From UHGV virus genome UHGV-0176771: a DNA stretch of 64,000 nt, one strand, 5' to 3'. Both the position numbers and the translations under genes were made by a program. The DNA comes from a virus. The notes beneath the pieces were generated by a model. That model saw only the letters and a list, made by a program, of their open reading frames with translations. It ran no database searches and was not told the origin of the DNA. Shown piece after piece: positions 3,287 to 51,666 of the stretch (positions are counted from its first letter, which is position 1; each line of letters starts with the position of its first letter).

Positions 3287-3547
3287 ATGACAAAAGAGCA
3301 GGAAATTGAGATATTAATGGAAGATTATTGTACTAGATCGGAAGCAGAAGATCATTTGAAATGTGGAACGATTGTATTTGAAGAATCTGATTTAAAAAAA
3401 CATTGTGAATTATATGTAAAAGAATGGAAATTTGATGAAGAAGAAGCCGAAAGTTTTCGGACTATGCTAAATGGTGGGAAGTTGTTTGCAGATTGGGGAA
3501 AGGTCGAAAAGGACGGTAATACATTCTATATCATGTATTGCTTATAG
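3287..3547 (+). CDS. hypothetical protein (86 aa)
   Basis: ORF track. RBS AAAGGGGATACAAAACT then ATG. Confidence 0.55.
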   Translation: MTKEQEIEILMEDYCTRSEAEDHLKCGTIVFEESDLKKHCELYVKEWKFDEEEAESFRTMLNGGKLFADWGKVEKDGNTFYIMYCL

Positions 3548-3555
3548 AATAGGAG

Positions 3556-3777
3556 GTGACGAAAATAACTCTAAAACAAAAAATTGAATCTGCATATACT
3601 ATGGCAGGAATGACACAAACAGAATTTGCGAAACGTATGGGAATGAGTCAACAAACATTTTCGAGCCGTTTAAAAGTGGGAAAGTTTACACAAGAGGAAC
3701 TTGAAAAAATGGCTAGTATTGTGGGTGCTGAATGGAAAAGTGGATTTTACTTTCATAATGGGAATAGGATCGAATAA
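3556..3777 (+). CDS. XRE-family HTH transcriptional regulator (73 aa; GTG start, start uncertain)
   Basis: MTQTEFAKRMGMSQQTFSSRL is a typical XRE HTH. GGAGGTG directly upstream. Terminator follows, then a promoter with palindromic operators. Confidence 0.6.
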   Translation: MTKITLKQKIESAYTMAGMTQTEFAKRMGMSQQTFSSRLKVGKFTQEELEKMASIVGAEWKSGFYFHNGNRIE

Positions 3778-3789
3778 AAAGAACTGTAC

Positions 3790-3812
3790 AGAACTTTGTA
3801 TAGTTCTTTTTT
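3790..3812 (+). terminator. Rho-independent terminator after the HTH gene
   Basis: AGAACT-TTGTAT-AGTTCT hairpin followed by TTTTTT. Confidence 0.45.
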
Positions 3813-3859
3813 AATACCTAAATTAACAAATAAAACTTTGTAAAATACAAATAAATATA

Positions 3860-3917
3860 TTGACACAAAGATTTCTTTGTGATATAGTAACATCAACGAT
3901 AACAAAGAAATCTTTGT
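3860..3917 (+). promoter_or_regulatory. Promoter TTGACA-17-TATAGT overlapped by palindromic operator CAAAGATTTCTTTG, with a second copy ACAAAGAAATCTTTGT 36 bp downstream
   Basis: TTGACA 3860-3865, TATAGT 3883-3888. Inverted repeats at 3866-3879 and 3902-3917 share half-sites CAAAGA/TCTTTG. Confidence 0.45.
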
Positions 3918-4069
3918 TAAGCGTATAGCACCTTGTCAACTTCATATAGTTAATCAAATACAACGCGTTTATACGAGCAGCCAACACTGTTTAGGTACAG
4001 AACTCTTATAAGCGGAAAATCAGCAAGTGAATTAAGGGAATAAACCGTAAACAGGCTGTGTTGTATGAT

Positions 4070-4123
4070 GTTCTAGTCTATCGGTAAAAGTCCGATACTG
4101 ATGAGCAGGAGCGAAACTAGAAG
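4070..4123 (+). ncRNA. Candidate type III hammerhead self-cleaving ribozyme
   Basis: Stem III UUCUAGU / ACUAGAA. Cleavage triplet GUC (4076-4078). Stem I UAUCGG-UAAAAGU-CCGAUA. Core CUGAUGA (4098-4104). Short stem II GC-AGGA-GC. GAAA (4113-4116). Confidence 0.55.
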
Positions 4124-4158
4124 AGAATAAGAAAACATACATAAAGAAAGGGCAAAGG

Positions 4159-4557
4159 GTGGAAATTATGAAAGAATTTAGAATTGAAAATAATAAAATT
4201 TACAGTAGTAGTGGACTTTGTGAAAAAACGGATATTTTTGAAATAGTGGATAAAATTCCGTCTGGCTTTTTTGTCTGGAATATCGGAGAAAATATGGGAA
4301 GTGATGAATATATTCCACTTGCACAGGATCTAAAGCCTGGCGATAAGGAAAGTTTTGAGATAAATCCATACACTCTTAAAGCTATCAAACTTGATTTCGA
4401 AGAAGTAAAACTTTTAAGAAATGCCGCAAGAGTTGGAGTTAATAACAGAATCACCGCAGAAAAAGCATTAAAAAGCAAAAGAAAAGGATATTGGAGTAAT
4501 AGAAAAAGAGAACAGGCAGAAAAAACAATTGAAATCTTTAATCGAATAACAGCGTAA
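4159..4557 (+). CDS. hypothetical protein (132 aa)
   Basis: ORF track. RBS AAAGGGTGGAAATT then ATG. Confidence 0.55.
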   Translation: MEIMKEFRIENNKIYSSSGLCEKTDIFEIVDKIPSGFFVWNIGENMGSDEYIPLAQDLKPGDKESFEINPYTLKAIKLDFEEVKLLRNAARVGVNNRITAEKALKSKRKGYWSNRKREQAEKTIEIFNRITA

Positions 4558-4635
4558 AACGAATTTGTTTCAGCATGGCTTTATCAAAAATTGTAAGAAA
4601 TACAAAACTTTATACTAGACAGGAGGAAAAATACA

Positions 4636-5253
4636 ATGTTAGCAAGAACAATCAAACACGAAGAATTAAAAGGCGGCTACACGATGGGAAAGAAAATCAT
4701 CATTGATGCCTGTGAGATTTTCGGAGAATTTGAAGTTATGGCAATGTATGAAGATGGTAAGGAGTTAGAAAGCAAAACCGTAACAACGGAAAGCGAAGCA
4801 ATTAAAGTATTTGATGAGCTGTTTTTAAAGTATGCGGAGCCGTTACAATGTGCGCTTTATAATAAATTACATTCTGGAAAGAAATATACACTTGTGTATT
4901 TGAATGACTTTGGTTTTCCGGTAGCTGAAAAGATCACTTTTCATTCTGTTAGATCATCCACATATGCACAACACAGCGATGTTATGGAAATGATTTTTAC
5001 ACCATACCGAAAAAGAACACAATATAGAAAACTCTTCTATAACTGTTCTATGATGATTTTTGAAGGTTGGCAGGATTTAAAAGAAGAGGAAATAAAAGAA
5101 ACTTTTGAAGATAATAAAAATGTAAAAATTACAAAATCAAAATATGGCTGCTTTGACAGTAGGTATATTGATGATTTAGAGAACTGTTTTAAAAATCCAG
5201 TTGTTATCTTTAAGAATTATAAAACAGGTGTAAATGGTAAAATTTACGCATAG
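4636..5253 (+). CDS. hypothetical protein (205 aa)
   Basis: ORF track. RBS CAGGAGGAAAAATACA then ATG. Confidence 0.6.
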   Translation: MLARTIKHEELKGGYTMGKKIIIDACEIFGEFEVMAMYEDGKELESKTVTTESEAIKVFDELFLKYAEPLQCALYNKLHSGKKYTLVYLNDFGFPVAEKITFHSVRSSTYAQHSDVMEMIFTPYRKRTQYRKLFYNCSMMIFEGWQDLKEEEIKETFEDNKNVKITKSKYGCFDSRYIDDLENCFKNPVVIFKNYKTGVNGKIYA

Positions 5254-15707: not shown

Positions 15708-15971
15708 ATGAAAGGATGCTGTAAAGTGCAAGAACTTGAAAAAGAAGATATCCCATTGAGAGAATACGAAAAATTGTATTGTCGGAATGTATATGAATAC
15801 CTTACACGGAATAACAAGCCACAGGAACAGAAATATTATAGAACCGATGACGGAGAGTTATGGGAAATTAGTTGTTTTCACAGAAGAGAATCAAAAGAAT
15901 TTGCAGAACGATTGTCTGCATTAGAATATTTACAAAAGAAAATAGATATTGCAGAAGCGTTGGGATTTTAG
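15708..15971 (+). CDS. hypothetical protein (87 aa)
   Basis: ORF track. Starts 4 nt after the preceding stop. Confidence 0.5.
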   Translation: MKGCCKVQELEKEDIPLREYEKLYCRNVYEYLTRNNKPQEQKYYRTDDGELWEISCFHRRESKEFAERLSALEYLQKKIDIAEALGF

Positions 15972-15982
15972 GAGGACATTAT

Positions 15983-16978
15983 ATGTGTTATAAAATTGAA
16001 AAACAAAGAAAAATAGAACAAAAACTTGCAAAAGAATTAAAAGATATTCCTGATTTTATATCAGATTTTTTTGATAGATATAAATCAGCAGCTACAAAGA
16101 GAGTTAATTGGATATATATTAGAGATATGCTTAATTGGATGATCAATAATAAATATATAAATAAACAAAGCATAGCAGAAATCAATGAAACAGATATACA
16201 GATTATTACTAGTAATAATCTTATTAAATATCTTAACGAATTAAAAAATGGAATTTTAGGAAGAACAAATTCACTGGATTCTATCAATACAAAGAAGAAT
16301 GTATTCAGTGCTTTTTGGAATTATTTACGACAAAATAAATATGTCGATGATAATGTGATTTCACATATACCTGGCAATCTATATAAATCTGAAAAAAGAT
16401 ATAAAGAAGTAGAAATCCCAACAGATGAGCAAGTGGAAAAATTCTTAGTAAATATCACAGATGGAAATAAAAATGAATTTAATATTATTAGAAATATTGC
16501 CATTGTTCAACTTATAAAAGGAAGTGGTATTCGTTCAGAAGAGCTAATAAATATGGATATTTCCGATTTACATCTATACGAAGAAAAAAGACCGTATATG
16601 ATGATTCTTGGAAAGGGAAATATACAAGAATATGATAAAGTTTATATGTCTGAACAGGCTAGAATGAATATTGAGGAGTATTTGAAAATTAGAACTTTTT
16701 TCGTAACAGAGAGAAAAATTAAAGATAATGCATTGTTTTTATCAAATGAAAATAACAGATTAAGTAAAGGTGCAATTACAGGGTTTTTTAATTTATATTC
16801 GGAAGGTGAAATTTACCCACATATGTTAAGACATTGGGTTGGAAGTAAATTGTATGAAGAAACAAAAGATATTGTTCTTGTTCAAAGACAATTAAGGCAC
16901 AAGAATTTGGAAACAGCAGCAAGATACTATGTACACATGGATGAATCTACTATAGCAGATGCTGTACTCACGCTTTAA
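15983..16978 (+). CDS. Tyrosine recombinase / phage integrase family protein (331 aa)
   Basis: C-terminal catalytic signature HMLRHWVGSKL...LVQRQLRHKNLETAARYYVH (R..H-R-Y). RBS GGAGGACATTAT then ATG 15983. ORF-track start 15872 is an in-frame upstream extension overlapping the previous gene. Confidence 0.8.
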   Translation: MCYKIEKQRKIEQKLAKELKDIPDFISDFFDRYKSAATKRVNWIYIRDMLNWMINNKYINKQSIAEINETDIQIITSNNLIKYLNELKNGILGRTNSLDSINTKKNVFSAFWNYLRQNKYVDDNVISHIPGNLYKSEKRYKEVEIPTDEQVEKFLVNITDGNKNEFNIIRNIAIVQLIKGSGIRSEELINMDISDLHLYEEKRPYMMILGKGNIQEYDKVYMSEQARMNIEEYLKIRTFFVTERKIKDNALFLSNENNRLSKGAITGFFNLYSEGEIYPHMLRHWVGSKLYEETKDIVLVQRQLRHKNLETAARYYVHMDESTIADAVLTL

Positions 16979-28596: not shown

Positions 28597-29634
28597 ATGA
28601 TAAAAGATAACACAGATTTTGATAAGATTATTGATTTTGAAAATTTATATAAAGCATACAGAGATTCAAAAAGTGGCAAAGGTTTTACGAAAAGCAGAAT
28701 TAAATTTGAATTATCTGCTCTTGACGGAATTTATCAAATTAAGAAACTTTTAGAATCAAAGCAATATGAAGTAGATAGATATAATAGATTTAAAGTATAT
28801 GAACCGAAAGAGAGAATTATAGAAGCAGGAAGTTTTAAAGACAAAATTGTGCAGCACAGTTTATGTGATAATGTGCTTCTTCCTATTTTAAGTAATGAAT
28901 TTATATACACGAATTATGCCGGACAAATAGGAAAAGGAACATTGTTTGGTTTGGATTGTCTGAAATATCAAATTTATTTAGCATATCAGAAATACGGATA
29001 TGATTGTTGGATTATTAAAGGTGATATTAAAAAATTTTTCTATAATATTGATCATAATATTCTGAAAGATATTGTTCCATATTTTATATCTAATCCAGAT
29101 ACATACTGGTTATGTGAAAAATTTATTGATAGTACAAGTGAGAAAGGGTTGCCTCTTGGAAATCAAGTTAGTCAGGTATTTGCTTTATTATATTTGTCTG
29201 GTTTTGATCATTTTATAACTGGAGAGTTAGGTGTCAAATATTATGGAAGATATATGGATGATTTCTATTTAATTGTAGAATCAAAACAATATGCAAAATA
29301 TTGTTTGTGTGCAATAGAAGATTTTGTAAACACTCTAAATCTTGAATTGAACGGTAAAACTCAGATTATACCTTTTAAAAATGGAATTAAATTTTGTGGT
29401 TTTCATACACATGTCACAAAAGATGGAAAGGTAATTAGAAAACTTACAAATGAAAAGAAGAGAAAATCGAAAAAGAAATATCGAAAAATGGCAAAGATGG
29501 TAAAAGAGAATAAGTTATCAAAAGAAAAATTCATAGAATCTTATGAGTCTTGGAAGAATCATATTTCACATGGTAATTGTATCAAATTTACATATGAGAT
29601 GGATAAGATGATAGATGAGATATTATCAAGTTAA
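28597..29634 (+). CDS. DGR-type reverse transcriptase (345 aa)
   Basis: RT motifs RIIEAGSFKDKIVQHSL, GDIKKFFYNIDHN, YGRYMDDFYLI (YMDD) and the DGR-specific LGNQVSQ (SQ motif). Confidence 0.9.
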   Translation: MIKDNTDFDKIIDFENLYKAYRDSKSGKGFTKSRIKFELSALDGIYQIKKLLESKQYEVDRYNRFKVYEPKERIIEAGSFKDKIVQHSLCDNVLLPILSNEFIYTNYAGQIGKGTLFGLDCLKYQIYLAYQKYGYDCWIIKGDIKKFFYNIDHNILKDIVPYFISNPDTYWLCEKFIDSTSEKGLPLGNQVSQVFALLYLSGFDHFITGELGVKYYGRYMDDFYLIVESKQYAKYCLCAIEDFVNTLNLELNGKTQIIPFKNGIKFCGFHTHVTKDGKVIRKLTNEKKRKSKKKYRKMAKMVKENKLSKEKFIESYESWKNHISHGNCIKFTYEMDKMIDEILSS

Positions 29635-30966: not shown

Positions 30967-31037
30967 TGTGGATTAGTGTAAATGGTAGCACGATGCGGCA
31001 TATAGCATTAGAAGAGGTTCGAATCCTTTATTCACAA
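30967..31037 (+). tRNA. tRNA-like gene (anticodon probably CAT, Met/Ile2-type) with an irregular anticodon arm
   Basis: Acceptor TGTGGAT/ATTCACA. D-arm GTGT-AAATGGTA-GCAC. T-arm AGAGG-TTCGAAT-CCTTT (GGTTCGAATCC). Anticodon stem GATGC/GCATT encloses an 8-nt loop GGCATATA instead of 7. No encoded CCA. Confidence 0.45.
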
Positions 31038-36452: not shown

Positions 36453-37260
36453 AATTAACGGAGAGGTGTTAAATACAAAGAAGTTTCCAGACGGAACACT
36501 TTTGATTAAAGAGGATGTTCCTTATAATTTTGAAAATTATAGAGAGGCAACTATTACATGGTTGTTTGAAAATAATGAAGAATTAGTGACGCTAATTTAT
36601 ATTGTAAAGCATCTTAATTCTCATGGTATTGCAAGTCTGTATCTGAATATGCCATATATCCCAAACAGTCGTCAAGACCGTGTTAAAACAACTGAAGACG
36701 TATTTACATTAAAGTATTTTGCGGAAGTTATTAATTGGTTGGATTTTGATTCTGTAACAGTATTAGATCCACATTCATCTGTAAGCGAAGCTCTTATTGA
36801 TAGAGTTTTAATTAAATATCCAGACAAATATGTGTGGAAAGCGATTGAAAGTGAATACATTGGTGGCACAAATAATCTTACAATGTTCTATCCGGACGAA
36901 GGAGCTATGAAACGTTATTCTACAATGTTTGATCTTCCTTATGCTTTTGGTATTAAAAAGCGCGATTGGGAAACAGGGGAGATTAAAGGACTAGATGTTT
37001 CAGGCATGACAAATCTGATTAAAGGAAGAAAAATTTTAATTGTAGATGATATTTCAAGTCGTGGCGGAACATTTTATCATTCAGCTATTAAGTTAAAGGA
37101 ACTGGGAGCAAAGGAGATTTATCTATATGTATCTCATTGTGAAAATACAATCCTCGAAGGAGAAGTATTGAGTAGTGGATTGATTGACAGAGTGTTCACG
37201 ACAAATAGTATTTTTACAAAAGAACATGAGAAAGTAGAGGTATTTGAATATGACGAATAA
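36445..37260 (+). CDS. Ribose-phosphate pyrophosphokinase (Prs)-like protein; candidate ADP-ribose pyrophosphate synthetase (Adps) of an NAD+ reconstitution pathway (271 aa)
   Basis: PRPP-synthetase fold with PRPP/ribose-phosphate binding loop ILIVDDISSRGGTF. Overlaps the NAMPT-like gene by 11 nt. RBS GGAGAGAAAACTT then ATG 36445. Confidence 0.7.
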   Translation: MIKINGEVLNTKKFPDGTLLIKEDVPYNFENYREATITWLFENNEELVTLIYIVKHLNSHGIASLYLNMPYIPNSRQDRVKTTEDVFTLKYFAEVINWLDFDSVTVLDPHSSVSEALIDRVLIKYPDKYVWKAIESEYIGGTNNLTMFYPDEGAMKRYSTMFDLPYAFGIKKRDWETGEIKGLDVSGMTNLIKGRKILIVDDISSRGGTFYHSAIKLKELGAKEIYLYVSHCENTILEGEVLSSGLIDRVFTTNSIFTKEHEKVEVFEYDE

Positions 37261-38734
37261 GACAAATCCAATGTTATTAATTGACTTTTATAAAGCGGTT
37301 CATGCAGAAATGCTACCTGAAAATATTACAAAATCAGTTTCCTATTTTACTCCTAGAATGAGTCGTGTAAAACGATGGGATAAAGTAGTAATGTTTGGAT
37401 TACAGGGGTTTATTAAAACGTATCTGATTGATTATTTCAATGAAGAATTTTTTGACAAACCTTTTGAAGAAATTATTTATGAATATAAAAGAATTATGGA
37501 TGCATCACTTGGTAAGGATGCGTATAAAATTGACAAGATTGAAAGTCTACATAAATTGGGATATTTGCCAATTGAGATTGTTGCATTGCCAGAAGGTACA
37601 ATTGTTCCAATGCATGTGCCTATGTTTGGTATTACAAATACACATAAAGATTTTGCATGGCTGCCTCAGAGTTTAGAAAGTCTTATCTCGGCAGAAATGT
37701 GGCATCCAATGTTAGCAGCAACAGTAGGAATGACCTATCGTGGCATCGTTAATCACTATTATGGTCTAACTTGTGATGACTATATTCCAAGATCAAAAGC
37801 TCTTGGTGCCTTTGACTTCCGGGGAGAAGAGTGTTTGGAATCAGCGGTAAAAGCAGGCGCTGGGTGGTGTTTATCATTTTTGAATACAGCAACCGTTCCA
37901 ACTATTCCTTATCTTGAAAAGAATTATTTTTGTGATTGTACAAAAGAACCTGTTGCATATGGAAGTCCTAGTACAGAACATTCTGTAATGTGCAGTAATT
38001 ATGCAGTAGATGGAGACGAGATTACATTATTAAGAAGATTACTTACTGAAATCTATCCAAACACAAGTTTTTCAGCAGTTCTTGACTCTTATGATTATTG
38101 GAATATCATCGATAATATTCTTCCTCAATTAAAAACAGAAATCATGAATCATAACGGATGCATGTTGATGCGTGGAGATTCTGGAGATTGTGTAGAAGTT
38201 GTAACAAAAACTGTATTTAAATTATGGGAAGAATTTGGCGGGACAGTTAATAGCAAGGGGTATAAAGTGTTAGATCCACATGTAAAAGCAATTTACGGTG
38301 ACTCAATTACAGTACAGAGATGTGAAAAAATTTACAGAATTCTTATGGAAAATGGATTTGCGTGTTCAAATGTAGCACTAGGAGTTGGATCGTTTTCATT
38401 TCAGTGCATCGAAGAAGATGGAGTATTAAAACCATTTACAAGGGACACTTTTAGTTCTTGTATTAAAGCAACATATTGTGAGATTGATGGAAAAGCTACT
38501 CCAATTTTTAAAAATCCTAAGGACGGTGGTTTTAAGAAATCACAGAAAGGATGCTGCAGAGTATATACACGATGTGATGGAAGTATTTATTACGAGGATG
38601 GGCTTACATGGAAACAGGCTATTGATTATGAAAAACGTGGAAATATGTTAATTCCAGTCTTTAAAGATGGAGAATTATTAAAAGAACAATCGTTAAAAGA
38701 AATTAGAGATAGACTACATGGAGGAGAATTTTAA
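37250..38734 (+). CDS. Nicotinamide phosphoribosyltransferase (NAMPT/NadV)-like protein; candidate nicotinamide ADP-ribose transferase (Namat) (494 aa)
   Basis: N-terminus NPMLLIDFYKAVHAEMLPENITKSVSYFTPR...VMFGLQ parallels NAMPT ([29 protein letters not shown]...YGLQ). Type II PRTase size. Confidence 0.75.
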   Translation: MTNKTNPMLLIDFYKAVHAEMLPENITKSVSYFTPRMSRVKRWDKVVMFGLQGFIKTYLIDYFNEEFFDKPFEEIIYEYKRIMDASLGKDAYKIDKIESLHKLGYLPIEIVALPEGTIVPMHVPMFGITNTHKDFAWLPQSLESLISAEMWHPMLAATVGMTYRGIVNHYYGLTCDDYIPRSKALGAFDFRGEECLESAVKAGAGWCLSFLNTATVPTIPYLEKNYFCDCTKEPVAYGSPSTEHSVMCSNYAVDGDEITLLRRLLTEIYPNTSFSAVLDSYDYWNIIDNILPQLKTEIMNHNGCMLMRGDSGDCVEVVTKTVFKLWEEFGGTVNSKGYKVLDPHVKAIYGDSITVQRCEKIYRILMENGFACSNVALGVGSFSFQCIEEDGVLKPFTRDTFSSCIKATYCEIDGKATPIFKNPKDGGFKKSQKGCCRVYTRCDGSIYYEDGLTWKQAIDYEKRGNMLIPVFKDGELLKEQSLKEIRDRLHGGEF

Positions 38735-49830: not shown

Positions 49831-51666
49831 ATGGTAGAAAATAAAGATAAAAAATATAATTCAGATAAACATTGGGAACTTGTAAATTTTTGTGAATTTG
49901 ATAAGTATGCAGCAAAGAGCTACTGTGCAATTCACAATGTAGATGAAAATTTGAATCTTGGTGATATCACAAAGGTCGATGAAACTGAATTAGATGATTT
50001 TAATATGATTTGTGGAGGGTCGCCGTGCCAGGATTTCAGCGTGGCAGGAAAACAAAAGGGGTCTGTATGGACTTGTAAAGATTGTGGACATGAATATAAT
50101 CCATTAACAGTTCATTGGAGTAAAAGAGATTGTTGTCCGAATTGTGGAAGTAAAAATATTGAAAAGACAAGATCTTCTCTCCTTGTAGAATATTTACGAG
50201 TAGTTAGATCAAATAGACCTAATTTTGGAATTTATGAAAATGTAAAGAATATTGTTGGAAAACAGTTTAAAGACACAACATTTAAATTATTTACTGATGA
50301 ATTAGAAGAATATGGATATAACGTATATTGGAAGGTTCTGAATGCTAAAAATTATGGAATTCCACAGAACAGAGAACGTGTGTATCTGTTATTTATTAAA
50401 AAGGATTTGGATAATGGTAAGTTTGAATTTCCAGAGCCTTTTGATAATGGATTAAGATTGAAGGATTTATTGGAAGATGAAGTCGATGAGAAGTTCTATA
50501 TTTCTGATGAGAAAGTTGAAAGATTTATTACAAATTTAAATGACAAAAATTCTTTATTATATGATCCATGCCAAGTGAAAAGAGAAGGAAAGAGCAGAGA
50601 ATATTCTGAATATGCACCAACATTAACTTCGAGAGATTATAAAGATCCAAGATTAGTAAATGAAAATGTTGTAAGACAAGTTGGAAATATTTCCGATTGT
50701 AATGGAGCATGGGACAATCCGCAAGTAGGGAGAGTTTATGATGTAAGTGGTTGCAGCCAAACATTGAATACATGTAGTGGTGGTGGTCATGAACCGAAGG
50801 TTATTACAGGAATTGATAAGTCATATAACAATCCAAAATTCATTGAAACGGCAAATTGTATTACTTCACGAGAAGATCGTGGTATTTCAAATAGGAAGTC
50901 TGAAGGTGCAGCAGTTTTAGAAACTCCAAATATTAGTTATTGTTTGGACTCTAACTATTACAAAGGAACAACAATAGAACAATATATGAATAAACATCGT
51001 AGACAATTGATAGTCGAAAATAATAAAGTTGCAATCAAACAAGCTACTAAACAAGGATATATCGAATGTGAAATTGGTGGTGTTGCAGATTTGTCTTATC
51101 CAGACAGTAAAACTAGAAGAGGCCGAGTGCAGGATAATGGGAATACACGCCCAACCATTACGGCTACAGAAACTTGTATTTGTAGAATTGAACCTAAAGA
51201 AAGATTTTTTAAACAAGCACTTGAAACTTTAAATGAAAATGATTGTAAACCAGGAGATACAATTAACGCATTTAATAAACATGTTGACAAAACTGGATTT
51301 TCTCCAACATTAACTACAAGACCAGAAGGATTTAAAACAGCAATTCTACCTGTTACAGATAATATTAGAATTCGTAAGCTAACGCCGAAGGAGTGCTTTA
51401 GGCTTATGGGATTTTCTGATGAAGATTTTGATTCAGCGCAGAAAGCAGGAATCTCAAACAGTCAATTGTACAAGCAAGCTGGAAATTCAATTGTAGTAGA
51501 TGTTCTTTATTACATATATGTAGAGCTTTATAAAGCTATGCCTTATTTGTTTGATGATCTGAAATTAAGTAGTTTCTTCTCTGGAATTGGCGCTTTTGAG
51601 ATTGCACTTGATAGATTATACAAAGGTATTAATTCCGGAAATTTTATCAATCCACAGACAGAGTAA
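49831..51666 (+). CDS. DNA cytosine-5 methyltransferase, apparently circularly permuted (motif I at the C-terminus), with a zinc-ribbon insertion after motif IV (611 aa)
   Basis: Motifs in order: EFDKYAAKSY (II/III-like), GGSPCQDFSVAGKQKG (IV), inserted WTCKDCGHEY...CCPNCGS, IYENVKN (VI), GIPQNRERVYLLF (VIII), long TRD, LTPKECFRLMGF (IX), LYKQAGNSIVVDV (X), then SSFFSGIGAFEIAL (motif I FxGxG) at the C-terminus. An in-frame TAA lies immediately upstream of the start ATG. Confidence 0.8.
   Translation: MVENKDKKYNSDKHWELVNFCEFDKYAAKSYCAIHNVDENLNLGDITKVDETELDDFNMICGGSPCQDFSVAGKQKGSVWTCKDCGHEYNPLTVHWSKRDCCPNCGSKNIEKTRSSLLVEYLRVVRSNRPNFGIYENVKNIVGKQFKDTTFKLFTDELEEYGYNVYWKVLNAKNYGIPQNRERVYLLFIKKDLDNGKFEFPEPFDNGLRLKDLLEDEVDEKFYISDEKVERFITNLNDKNSLLYDPCQVKREGKSREYSEYAPTLTSRDYKDPRLVNENVVRQVGNISDCNGAWDNPQVGRVYDVSGCSQTLNTCSGGGHEPKVITGIDKSYNNPKFIETANCITSREDRGISNRKSEGAAVLETPNISYCLDSNYYKGTTIEQYMNKHRRQLIVENNKVAIKQATKQGYIECEIGGVADLSYPDSKTRRGRVQDNGNTRPTITATETCICRIEPKERFFKQALETLNENDCKPGDTINAFNKHVDKTGFSPTLTTRPEGFKTAILPVTDNIRIRKLTPKECFRLMGFSDEDFDSAQKAGISNSQLYKQAGNSIVVDVLYYIYVELYKAMPYLFDDLKLSSFFSGIGAFEIALDRLYKGINSGNFINPQTE

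Follow-up and report, generated by a model that had tools for sequence, protein, structure and literature searches.

Does the RNA in front of a small gene of an uncultured phage cut itself, and if so, what would the cut do to the message? The question is raised by a 64,000-nucleotide (nt) stretch of the viral genome UHGV-0176771 (the window, meaning the whole stretch of DNA that was analyzed), for which a first-pass annotation had proposed a candidate type III hammerhead ribozyme at 4062-4130. The reported span encloses the element proper (4071-4122), which is very probably a genuine self-cleaving hammerhead; the leader in which it lies belongs to a small gene, and the phage is large and uncultured. 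It is highly probable that the element belongs to a compact, phage-associated type III subclass (6-bp stem I with a UANRAGU loop, 2-bp stem II with an ANGA loop, open stem III) whose members would cleave themselves, and that in the window it would serve mRNA processing in the leader of a gene for a protein of 129 amino acids (aa).

Read from 4071 to 4122 on the plus strand, the element consists of UUCUAGUC, UAUCGG-UAAAAGU-CCGAUA, CUGAUGA, GC-AGGA-GC, GAAA and CUAGAA, so that all core elements claimed in the first-pass annotation are present in the stated order and spacing (table 1). Helix III is open and helices I and II are capped by loops, the type III topology, as seen both from the order of the elements and from alignments to the Rfam family RF00008 and to the family model R1 described below. 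Position 16.1 is U4077 and position 15.1 is A4116, and the A4116-U4077 pair is present. The nucleotide at the cleavage position 17 (C4078) is not a G, as is required, and the predicted cut after C4078 agrees with the placement of C17 relative to the conserved core. The length of stem II (2 bp) had also been recognized, but the remark that this is shorter than in most natural hammerheads needs to be softened: 2 bp is not unusual in bacterial and phage hammerheads, such stems are common and active in nature, and even 1-bp versions are fast (PMC3088659). When 4062-4130 is folded thermodynamically, stems I and III form (z = -2.1).

Other identities for the segment found no support. No match to the twister, twister-sister, pistol, hatchet or hepatitis delta virus-like ribozymes was obtained from Rfam at E <= 1 for the whole window or at E <= 10 for 3980-4200. 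With regard to an intrinsic terminator or attenuator, there is no terminator-like site on the plus strand within 3400-4800 and no T-run after 4122. A dimeric pairing through stem II of the maxizyme type was rejected, GCAGGAGC not being self-complementary.

The evidence that carries the identification is comparative. The 19-mer CTGATGAGCAGGAGCGAAA is present in 14 IMG/VR contigs, a pattern on loop 1 and the core that leaves stem II free (GTANAAGTCNNNNNCTGATGAG) matched 62 contigs, and a pattern on stem II that leaves loop 1 free matched 65 contigs. All three viral scans lead to the same family; viral and genome collections together yielded 49 distinct sequences, which share the core and the loops and differ in their stems. 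About 17 chance matches to the loop-1 pattern, which have neither a complementary stem I nor the GAAA, provide an internal control. Among the GTDB species genomes, a 22-base pattern identified eight contigs, all of which (8/8) carry complete hammerheads. Stem I is 6 bp long throughout the family, loop 1 reads U-A-N-R-A-G-U (once UACAGU) and stem III varies between 3 and 9 bp; stem II is GC/GC with the loop A-N-G-A, in which all four bases were seen at N, and one member (L018) carries a 3-bp version, GCU-UGG-AGC. The two loops, UANRAGU and ANGA, always occur together, whichever of them anchors the search. Family contigs range in G+C from 32% to >60%, and the labels of the metagenome-assembled genomes (MAGs) among the carriers comprise Eubacteriales, Caproicibacter, Paludibacteraceae, Prevotellaceae, Muribaculaceae, and one Woesearchaeota bin.

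Covariation was scored in two alignments, A1 with 29 distinct sequences (MAFFT) and A6 with 49 distinct sequences aligned to model R1. The sequences of A6 are all equally long, so that aligning them is trivial and introduces no bias in favor of the structure. In A1, 89.4% of the cells are paired, both partners have changed in 11 out of 15 pairs, and covariation scores 0.484, compared with 0.114 after shuffling (reached in 0/500 shuffles) and 0.06-0.14 when the structure is slid by 1-3 columns. The larger alignment A6 gives the same proportion of paired cells (89.4%), 143 doubly changed cells compared with 43 +/- 5 in the shuffles, and a score of 0.496 compared with 0.119 for shuffled (0/500 reach it) and 0.05-0.14 for slid structures. 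Within A6, stem I is paired in 99.3% of cells and five out of its six pairs have changed on both sides; in stem III the same holds for six out of seven pairs, the inner four being paired in nearly all 49 sequences. The U-A pair formed by A15.1 and U16.1 is present in 48 out of 48 scorable sequences, and the two pairs of stem II are conserved as G-C in 49/49 and C-G in 48/49. The core is constant: in A1 the CUGAUGA positions, the U and C of columns 8-9, and the GAAA are all invariant. Furthermore, G-U and U-G pairs occur in both stems in A6, and since these would be A-C mismatches on the other strand, the functional molecule is the plus-strand RNA. Model R1 aligns the window copy at 4070-4123 with 74.5 bits (E 2.7e-21), within the family range of 56-79 bits, and finds no further match in the rest of the window. 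The hammerhead proposed for this locus is thus supported by 49 distinct relatives in which the catalytic-core nucleotides are invariant and stems I and III carry compensatory changes, including a swap within the lineage of the window itself.

That lineage was followed through the gene downstream of the ribozyme. Genes for the identical 129-aa protein lie on contigs as long as 174 kb, among them Logan SRR5899003_10 (174,048 bp) and contig DXOZ01000049.1 of the NCBI assembly GCA_019412405.1 (174,086 bp); none of the contigs that carry the gene begins or ends at the predicted cleavage site. The ribozyme is kept in 8/8 contigs of the lineage. In L104, where the downstream protein is 94% identical, the stem III pair C4073-G4120 is replaced by U-A, N7, the sole core position that is free to vary, is a C, and both loops have changes at their N positions. 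On the 5' side of the ribozyme, the L104 leader has diverged and is ~50 nt shorter; from the ribozyme to the start codon, the sequence is conserved. A single C-to-U change, which retains a G-U pair, distinguishes the ribozyme of L001 and similar loci. Variation of the kind seen in L104 and L001 is what selection on a ribozyme is expected to leave. Motif, family, covariation, strand and the genomic architecture described below are direct observations.

The invariant, co-occurring loops suggest that loops 1 and 2 may make a tertiary contact of the kind on which activity at physiological Mg2+ depends. In loop 2, A-N-G-A conforms to the RNnA motif, and the heptaloop 1 starts with U (motifs as in PMC2632901). 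No conserved complementarity that would support a pseudoknot or Watson-Crick pairing between the loops was seen in the family sequences.

Some loci carry several modules. Three hammerhead-like modules, counted as one good and two degenerate copies, lie within ~470 nt on the plus strand of L008 (5472-5937). The first two run straight into CCCUAUG. The first module is complete and reads CCGAUGA in the core, with C in place of U at position 4; the second is truncated with a shortened stem I, and the third is divergent with an A at the cleavage position. This set may represent ribozyme decay or tolerated core variants. On the minus strand of L081 (1144-1984), three full-scoring copies (66-72 bits) lie within ~840 nt and bracket small open reading frames (ORFs), which is the arrangement of "multiple ribozymes flanking single genes" reported for prophages.

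Members of the family usually lie between co-directional, small, unrelated genes, with a GC-rich hairpin before and a ribosome-binding site after the ribozyme. A same-strand ORF of at least 50 codons ends <= 200 nt upstream of 42 out of 51 distinct copies, with a median distance of 16 nt to stem III. Among the 45 copies with a downstream start, the start codon is <= 25 nt from stem III in 36 (median 14 nt), and in ~19 copies the 3' strand of stem III shares nucleotides with a sequence resembling a Shine-Dalgarno (SD) element, as in GAAACGGAGGU-N6-AUG of L015. The 50 nt upstream of the copies fold with a mean energy of -16.0 kcal/mol, compared with -8.7 for random 50-mers of the same loci, and in most cases they form a GC-rich hairpin that lacks a U-run and stops 0-3 nt short of stem III. 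The proteins encoded downstream are small (about 50-150 aa). A tie between the ribozyme and one family of downstream genes was rejected: the 34 distinct downstream proteins fall into 22 similarity groups and are mostly unrelated.

On the basis of these data, the likely role is processing of mRNA leaders or of intercistronic RNA. In the window, the ribozyme would be transcribed from a repressor-controlled promoter (3860-3888) as part of the leader of the gene at 4168-4557. The RNA would fold into a three-way junction in which, by established hammerhead biochemistry, G12 and G8 would catalyze the attack by the 2'-OH of C17. The predicted cut between C4078 and U4079 would detach a 5' leader fragment of ~183 nt, with a 2',3'-cyclic phosphate at its end, and would leave an mRNA with a 5'-OH at U4079, its first nucleotide being base-paired in the stem I hairpin. 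The downstream message would thereby gain a hairpin-protected 5' end and be uncoupled from the upstream RNA. In the intercistronic members, the upstream message would be left ending just after a stable hairpin, and where the SD lies in or abuts the 3' strand of stem III, cleavage would free it. A bolder interpretation, which we offer tentatively and consider doubtful, is that hairpin, hammerhead and ribosome-binding site form a portable cassette that gates translation, in which release of the 5' fragment would unmask the SD and leave hairpins at the 3' end of the upstream and the 5' end of the downstream message, the UANRAGU and ANGA loops on helices of 6 and 2 bp would form a structurally undescribed contact, and, in the window lineage, the block from ribozyme to ATG would act as a recombination boundary. 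The window copy has no SD overlap, so the idea of SD unmasking does not apply to it.

Several observations weigh against a self-cleaving ribozyme that processes the leader. The thermodynamic fold of 4062-4130 swaps the 2-bp stem II for a 3-bp alternative, and stem II is invariant in the family and hence has no covariation support of its own. Loop 1 matches the UNmYN motif only in part, its 3' pyrimidine being last and not penultimate, and contacts between loops 1 and 2 do not usually involve a stem I that exceeds stem II by 4 bp. The window copy is atypical for the family: it lies in a promoter-proximal leader ~183 nt 3' of the promoter, at 45 nt from the start codon (ATG 4168), and does not overlap an SD. 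A 5'-OH end can promote decay in Firmicutes, as after glmS cleavage (PMC6765202), and the effect on expression may have either sign. Finally, RF00008 aligns 4075-4118 with 20.3 bits, below its gathering score of 48.5 bits (search of 3980-4200 at E <= 10).

The last of these points bears on the outcome that the first-pass annotation had named as speaking against a hammerhead, the lack of a significant covariance-model hit. With Rfam version 15, in which RF00008 (Hammerhead_3) belongs to clan CL00010, the whole window gave no match at gathering thresholds and no ribozyme of any class at E <= 1, and no hammerhead match was obtained at E <= 1 on 14 family loci. The alignment to RF00008 has an E-value of 0.044, which comes from the 221-nt search of 3980-4200; the model has 12 positions inside stem II where the window sequence has 4, and score is lost because stem II is short. 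Given 49 relatives with covarying stems, the Rfam result is a false negative, a blind spot for the subclass with a short stem II and not evidence against the element. The gathering score is a curated operational cut-off and not a defining biological feature, and the element shows every sequence and secondary-structure feature of the type III class, falling short only of that cut-off. Chance expectation was estimated from 400 windows of 64 kb, simulated with a second-order Markov model that matches the trinucleotide statistics, in which motifs with stems I and III of at least 13 bp together arose at ~0.0125 per window, and stem I of at least 6 bp together with stem III of at least 7 bp in 1 out of 400. 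A type III descriptor scan of both strands of the whole window found no other comparable candidate. Chance origin is therefore unlikely for one window; this is not decisive for a scan of many windows, and the decisive evidence is comparative.

Four other explanations were weighed against the processing ribozyme. A chance match would fit the single copy in the window, the RF00008 E-value of 0.044 on 221 nt, which becomes ~13 when scaled to 64 kb, and the weaker look-alikes that the simulated windows yield; it is already refuted by the 49 distinct relatives with compensatory stems and by the conservation of the element, with its lineage-internal compensatory change, in 8/8 lineage contigs, and its probability is negligible. 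A conserved hammerhead-like three-way junction that does not cleave, either a structure recognized by a protein or RNase or a decayed ribozyme, would be compatible with a short stem II, a score below the Rfam threshold and a catalytic activity that is deduced from the intact core, and inactive hammerhead-like RNAs have been documented (PMC3088659, Figure S7). However, the core of the documented look-alikes deviates and that of the window element does not, activity has been shown for hammerheads with a stem II of 1-2 bp (PMC3088659), and the invariant positions are exactly the catalytic nucleotides, with N7 alone varying, a pattern explained only by selection for catalysis. Such a junction is very unlikely.

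The two remaining explanations accept the ribozyme and differ in its product. In the main rival, constitutive cleavage might convert a stable 5'-triphosphate transcript into a 5'-OH RNA that is degraded by 5'-end-dependent RNases and so down-regulate the gene, as with glmS, which occupies the same 5' leader position and whose cleavage product is decayed by cellular RNases (PMC6765202); the G+C of 32% and some of the carrier MAGs (Eubacteriales, Caproicibacter) suggest Firmicutes-type hosts that have such RNases. Against this, the new 5' nucleotide U4079 would be paired in a 6-bp hairpin and leave no single-stranded overhang. A base-paired 5' end without an overhang hinders 5'-end-dependent exonucleases. 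In addition, most ribozymes of the family lie directly before an SD and a start codon and are easier to read as preparing a translatable message, so that down-regulation appears unlikely. Alternatively, the ribozyme could make the 3' end of a small RNA, the leader from ~3896 to 4078 being released as a functional non-coding RNA. The leader is ~95% identical between the window and L001/L010, and a long hairpin is predicted at 3969-4068, but this identity is no higher than that of the flanking genome (~93%), the z-score of the fold is only -1.5, Rfam has no match in the leader, and the L104 leader does not conserve the hairpin region and has diverged while the block from ribozyme to ATG was kept. 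Other family members have coding sequence instead of a leader upstream, and the release of a small RNA is highly improbable. Processing of the message by a self-cleaving ribozyme accounts best for the observations as a whole.

Knowledge of phage-encoded hammerheads dates back to 2010-2011. Their occurrence in phage and prophage genomes, as pointed out in the first-pass annotation, is documented (PMC3088659; PMC6155905), prokaryotic hammerheads flank small non-conserved prophage ORFs (PMC3088659; PMC6155905), and the biological role of phage hammerheads is still called an open question (PMC6155905, PMC6765202). The subclass shares with the bacterial and prophage hammerheads (PMC3088659, PMC6155905, PMC6765202) the core, a stem II that is often 2 bp, the location in phage or prophage DNA and the coding strand, as well as small non-conserved flanking ORFs, sometimes several copies per locus (three in L081), and a proposed function in the processing of long transcripts. 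It differs from the best-described prokaryotic hammerheads, which are type II with a pseudoknot between loop I and the 3' tail, in being type III with no evident pseudoknot and its own UANRAGU/ANGA loop pair, and the window copy lies in a promoter-proximal leader and not between cistrons. With the type III hammerheads of viroids and plant satellites (RF00008; chrysanthemum chlorotic mottle viroid, CChMVd, and satellite tobacco ringspot virus, sTRSV; PMC2632901) it has the topology, an identical core, a heptaloop 1 with a 5' U and a purine-rich R-N-N-A loop 2 in common, but stem II is 2 bp compared with about 4 or more, the pyrimidine of loop 1 is last and not penultimate, and the subclass is encoded in double-stranded DNA phage genomes and lies within mRNAs, unlike the rolling-circle RNA replicons. 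The glmS ribozyme of Gram-positive bacteria is likewise a self-cleaving RNA of the 5' leader, and by giving the downstream mRNA a chemically different 5' end it also changes what becomes of that mRNA; its fold is unrelated, it depends on a metabolite cofactor and its product is destabilized, whereas no ligand is implied here and the 5' end would be buried in a hairpin.

The core and stem II strings occur in no searchable paper and are absent from the primer and descriptor supplements of Perreault 2011, whose full alignment may already contain the subclass. Among deposited phages and plasmids, BLAST searches with the region, a 7.7-kb neighboring stretch and the family consensus gave no match. 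The element is real, with clean support, but its type and its setting are both familiar ones that a specialist would expect.

The strand given in the first-pass annotation holds, and so does the operator-controlled promoter named there: the promoter scan gave 11/12 matches, and the promoter is overlapped by a palindrome at 3865-3880 and followed by another at 3902-3917. Transcription is inferred to start near 3895. The promoter hexamers are kept in L001 and L104, and the operators differ. The product of the small helix-turn-helix (HTH) gene in front of the promoter is likely the operator-binding protein. Between this gene and the promoter, the terminator-like hairpin is kept in L001 through compensatory changes; the consensus terminator scan of the plus strand (3400-4800) passed over it for having too few G-C pairs. 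L001 and L104 carry a different palindrome, of the CCGAAAAC type, together with a diverged HTH gene, and when 3543-4176 of the window is compared with L001, L003, L004, L013, L014, and L104, the HTH gene and operators are ~76% identical and the remainder ~93%, which is the signature of an exchanged repressor/operator module. The gene 3' of the ribozyme has also been swapped in relatives, from after codon 5 (L001 has a different gene after the fifth codon), which suggests recombination at the conserved leader. With different modules on either side, the block from the ribozyme to the ATG is a conserved unit between variable modules. The close relative L010 contains a skipping-rope RNA (RF02924, 76.6 bits compared with a gathering score of 36.7) at 1297-1377 on its minus strand, a few hundred bases upstream of the HTH gene in the orientation of the window; the window itself has no RF02924 match.

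Table 1. Ribozyme elements and neighboring features in the window, with the basis of each assignment.
Feature	Position	Strand	Details and basis
Type III hammerhead ribozyme, complete, 52 nt	4071-4122	+	Sequence read, type III descriptor scan, family model R1, covariation
Stem III, 7 bp	4071-4077 (5' strand, UUCUAGU); 4116-4122 (3' strand, ACUAGAA)	+	Includes A15.1-U16.1
Predicted cleavage site	C17 = 4078; scissile bond 4078/4079; U1.1 = 4079	+	Predicted from position relative to conserved core
Stem I hairpin, 6 bp	4079-4084 (UAUCGG); 4092-4097 (CCGAUA)	+	Heptaloop UAAAAGU 4085-4091
Core CUGAUGA	4098-4104	+	C3-U4-G5-A6-U7-G8-A9
Stem II, 2 bp	G4105-C4112; C4106-G4111	+	G10.1-C11.1 and C10.2-G11.2; tetraloop AGGA 4107-4110
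Core GAA	4113-4115	+	G12-A13-A14; stem III 3' strand follows, starting with A15.1 at 4116
Small HTH (XRE-type) repressor-like gene, 73 aa	3556-3777	+	Pfam HTH_3 E 2e-5; PHROG transcriptional repressor families
Terminator-like hairpin and T-run, closing the upstream transcription unit	3776-3816	+	Inverted repeat 3776-3790 / 3797-3811, 93% complementary
Sigma-70-type promoter, TTGACA-17-TATAGT with TG extension	3860-3888	+	Promoter scan, 11/12 matches
Two perfect operator palindromes, ACAAAGA-NN-TCTTTGT	3865-3880; 3902-3917		Weaker third at 3826-3841
Long leader hairpin, predicted	3969-4068	+	Minimum-free-energy fold of 3896-4078; ends 2 nt before stem III
Gene for 129-aa protein of unknown function	4168-4557	+	SD-like AGGGUGG 4156-4162, 5 nt upstream of ATG

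The gene downstream of the ribozyme had been placed at 4159..4557. A gene is indeed present there on the plus strand, but its start is more likely ATG 4168 than GTG 4159, because most of the listed homologues are 129-130 aa long and AGGGUGG lies 5 nt upstream of the ATG. The 129-aa protein has 1110 homologues, and no Pfam or PHROG match was found; its AlphaFold model (predicted local distance difference test, pLDDT, 83.6) gave no fold match in the PDB at E <= 0.001. The protein family also adjoins genes for MobL relaxase, ParB_N, Gp49/HTH, and DUF4258 on contigs of up to 1.9 Mb (L087-L096), and the homologues in these MobL/ParB-type mobile elements lack the ribozyme. The protein is a widespread mobile-element cargo.

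The region as a whole is an array of small plus-strand genes in a large mobile element with phage hallmarks, which in the window comprise a sliding-clamp-like protein, an integrase, a nicotinamide phosphoribosyltransferase, a reverse transcriptase, and a methyltransferase. The ~174-kb element may be a large temperate phage or a phage-plasmid. The integrase-like protein, the nicotinamide phosphoribosyltransferase, and the 611-aa DNA methyltransferase are encoded at 15872-16978, 37244-38734, and 49831-51666, all on the plus strand. A 345-aa ORF at 28597-29634 (+) matches PHROG 1423 "Reverse transcriptase" (E 5e-110) and could be part of a diversity-generating retroelement or another reverse transcriptase system. 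About 1.3 kb 3' of this gene, a tRNA-like sequence at 30967-31037 (+) scored 44.3 bits with RF00005 (gathering score 29) in the E-value searches, is absent from the output at gathering thresholds and was not called by ARAGORN; 8 nt lie between the arms of its 4-bp anticodon stem compared with 9 in the model, giving an abnormal anticodon stem-loop.

The window thus contains a well-supported, previously unannotated ribozyme; the mobile element around it, ~174 kb long, is uncultured and carries phage genes. The compact subclass to which it belongs (49 distinct sequences from viral contigs, Clostridia and Bacteroidota MAGs, and one Woesearchaeota bin) escapes Rfam 15 at its usual thresholds, a detection gap through which routine annotation undercounts phage ribozymes. 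The recurring order of hairpin, ribozyme, SD and start codon leads to testable predictions, namely that cleavage would protect the 3' end of the upstream message, protect the 5' end of the downstream message, and unmask the SD. The window copy is a convenient test case, since it lies behind a single strong, operator-controlled promoter where the effect of cleavage could be isolated.

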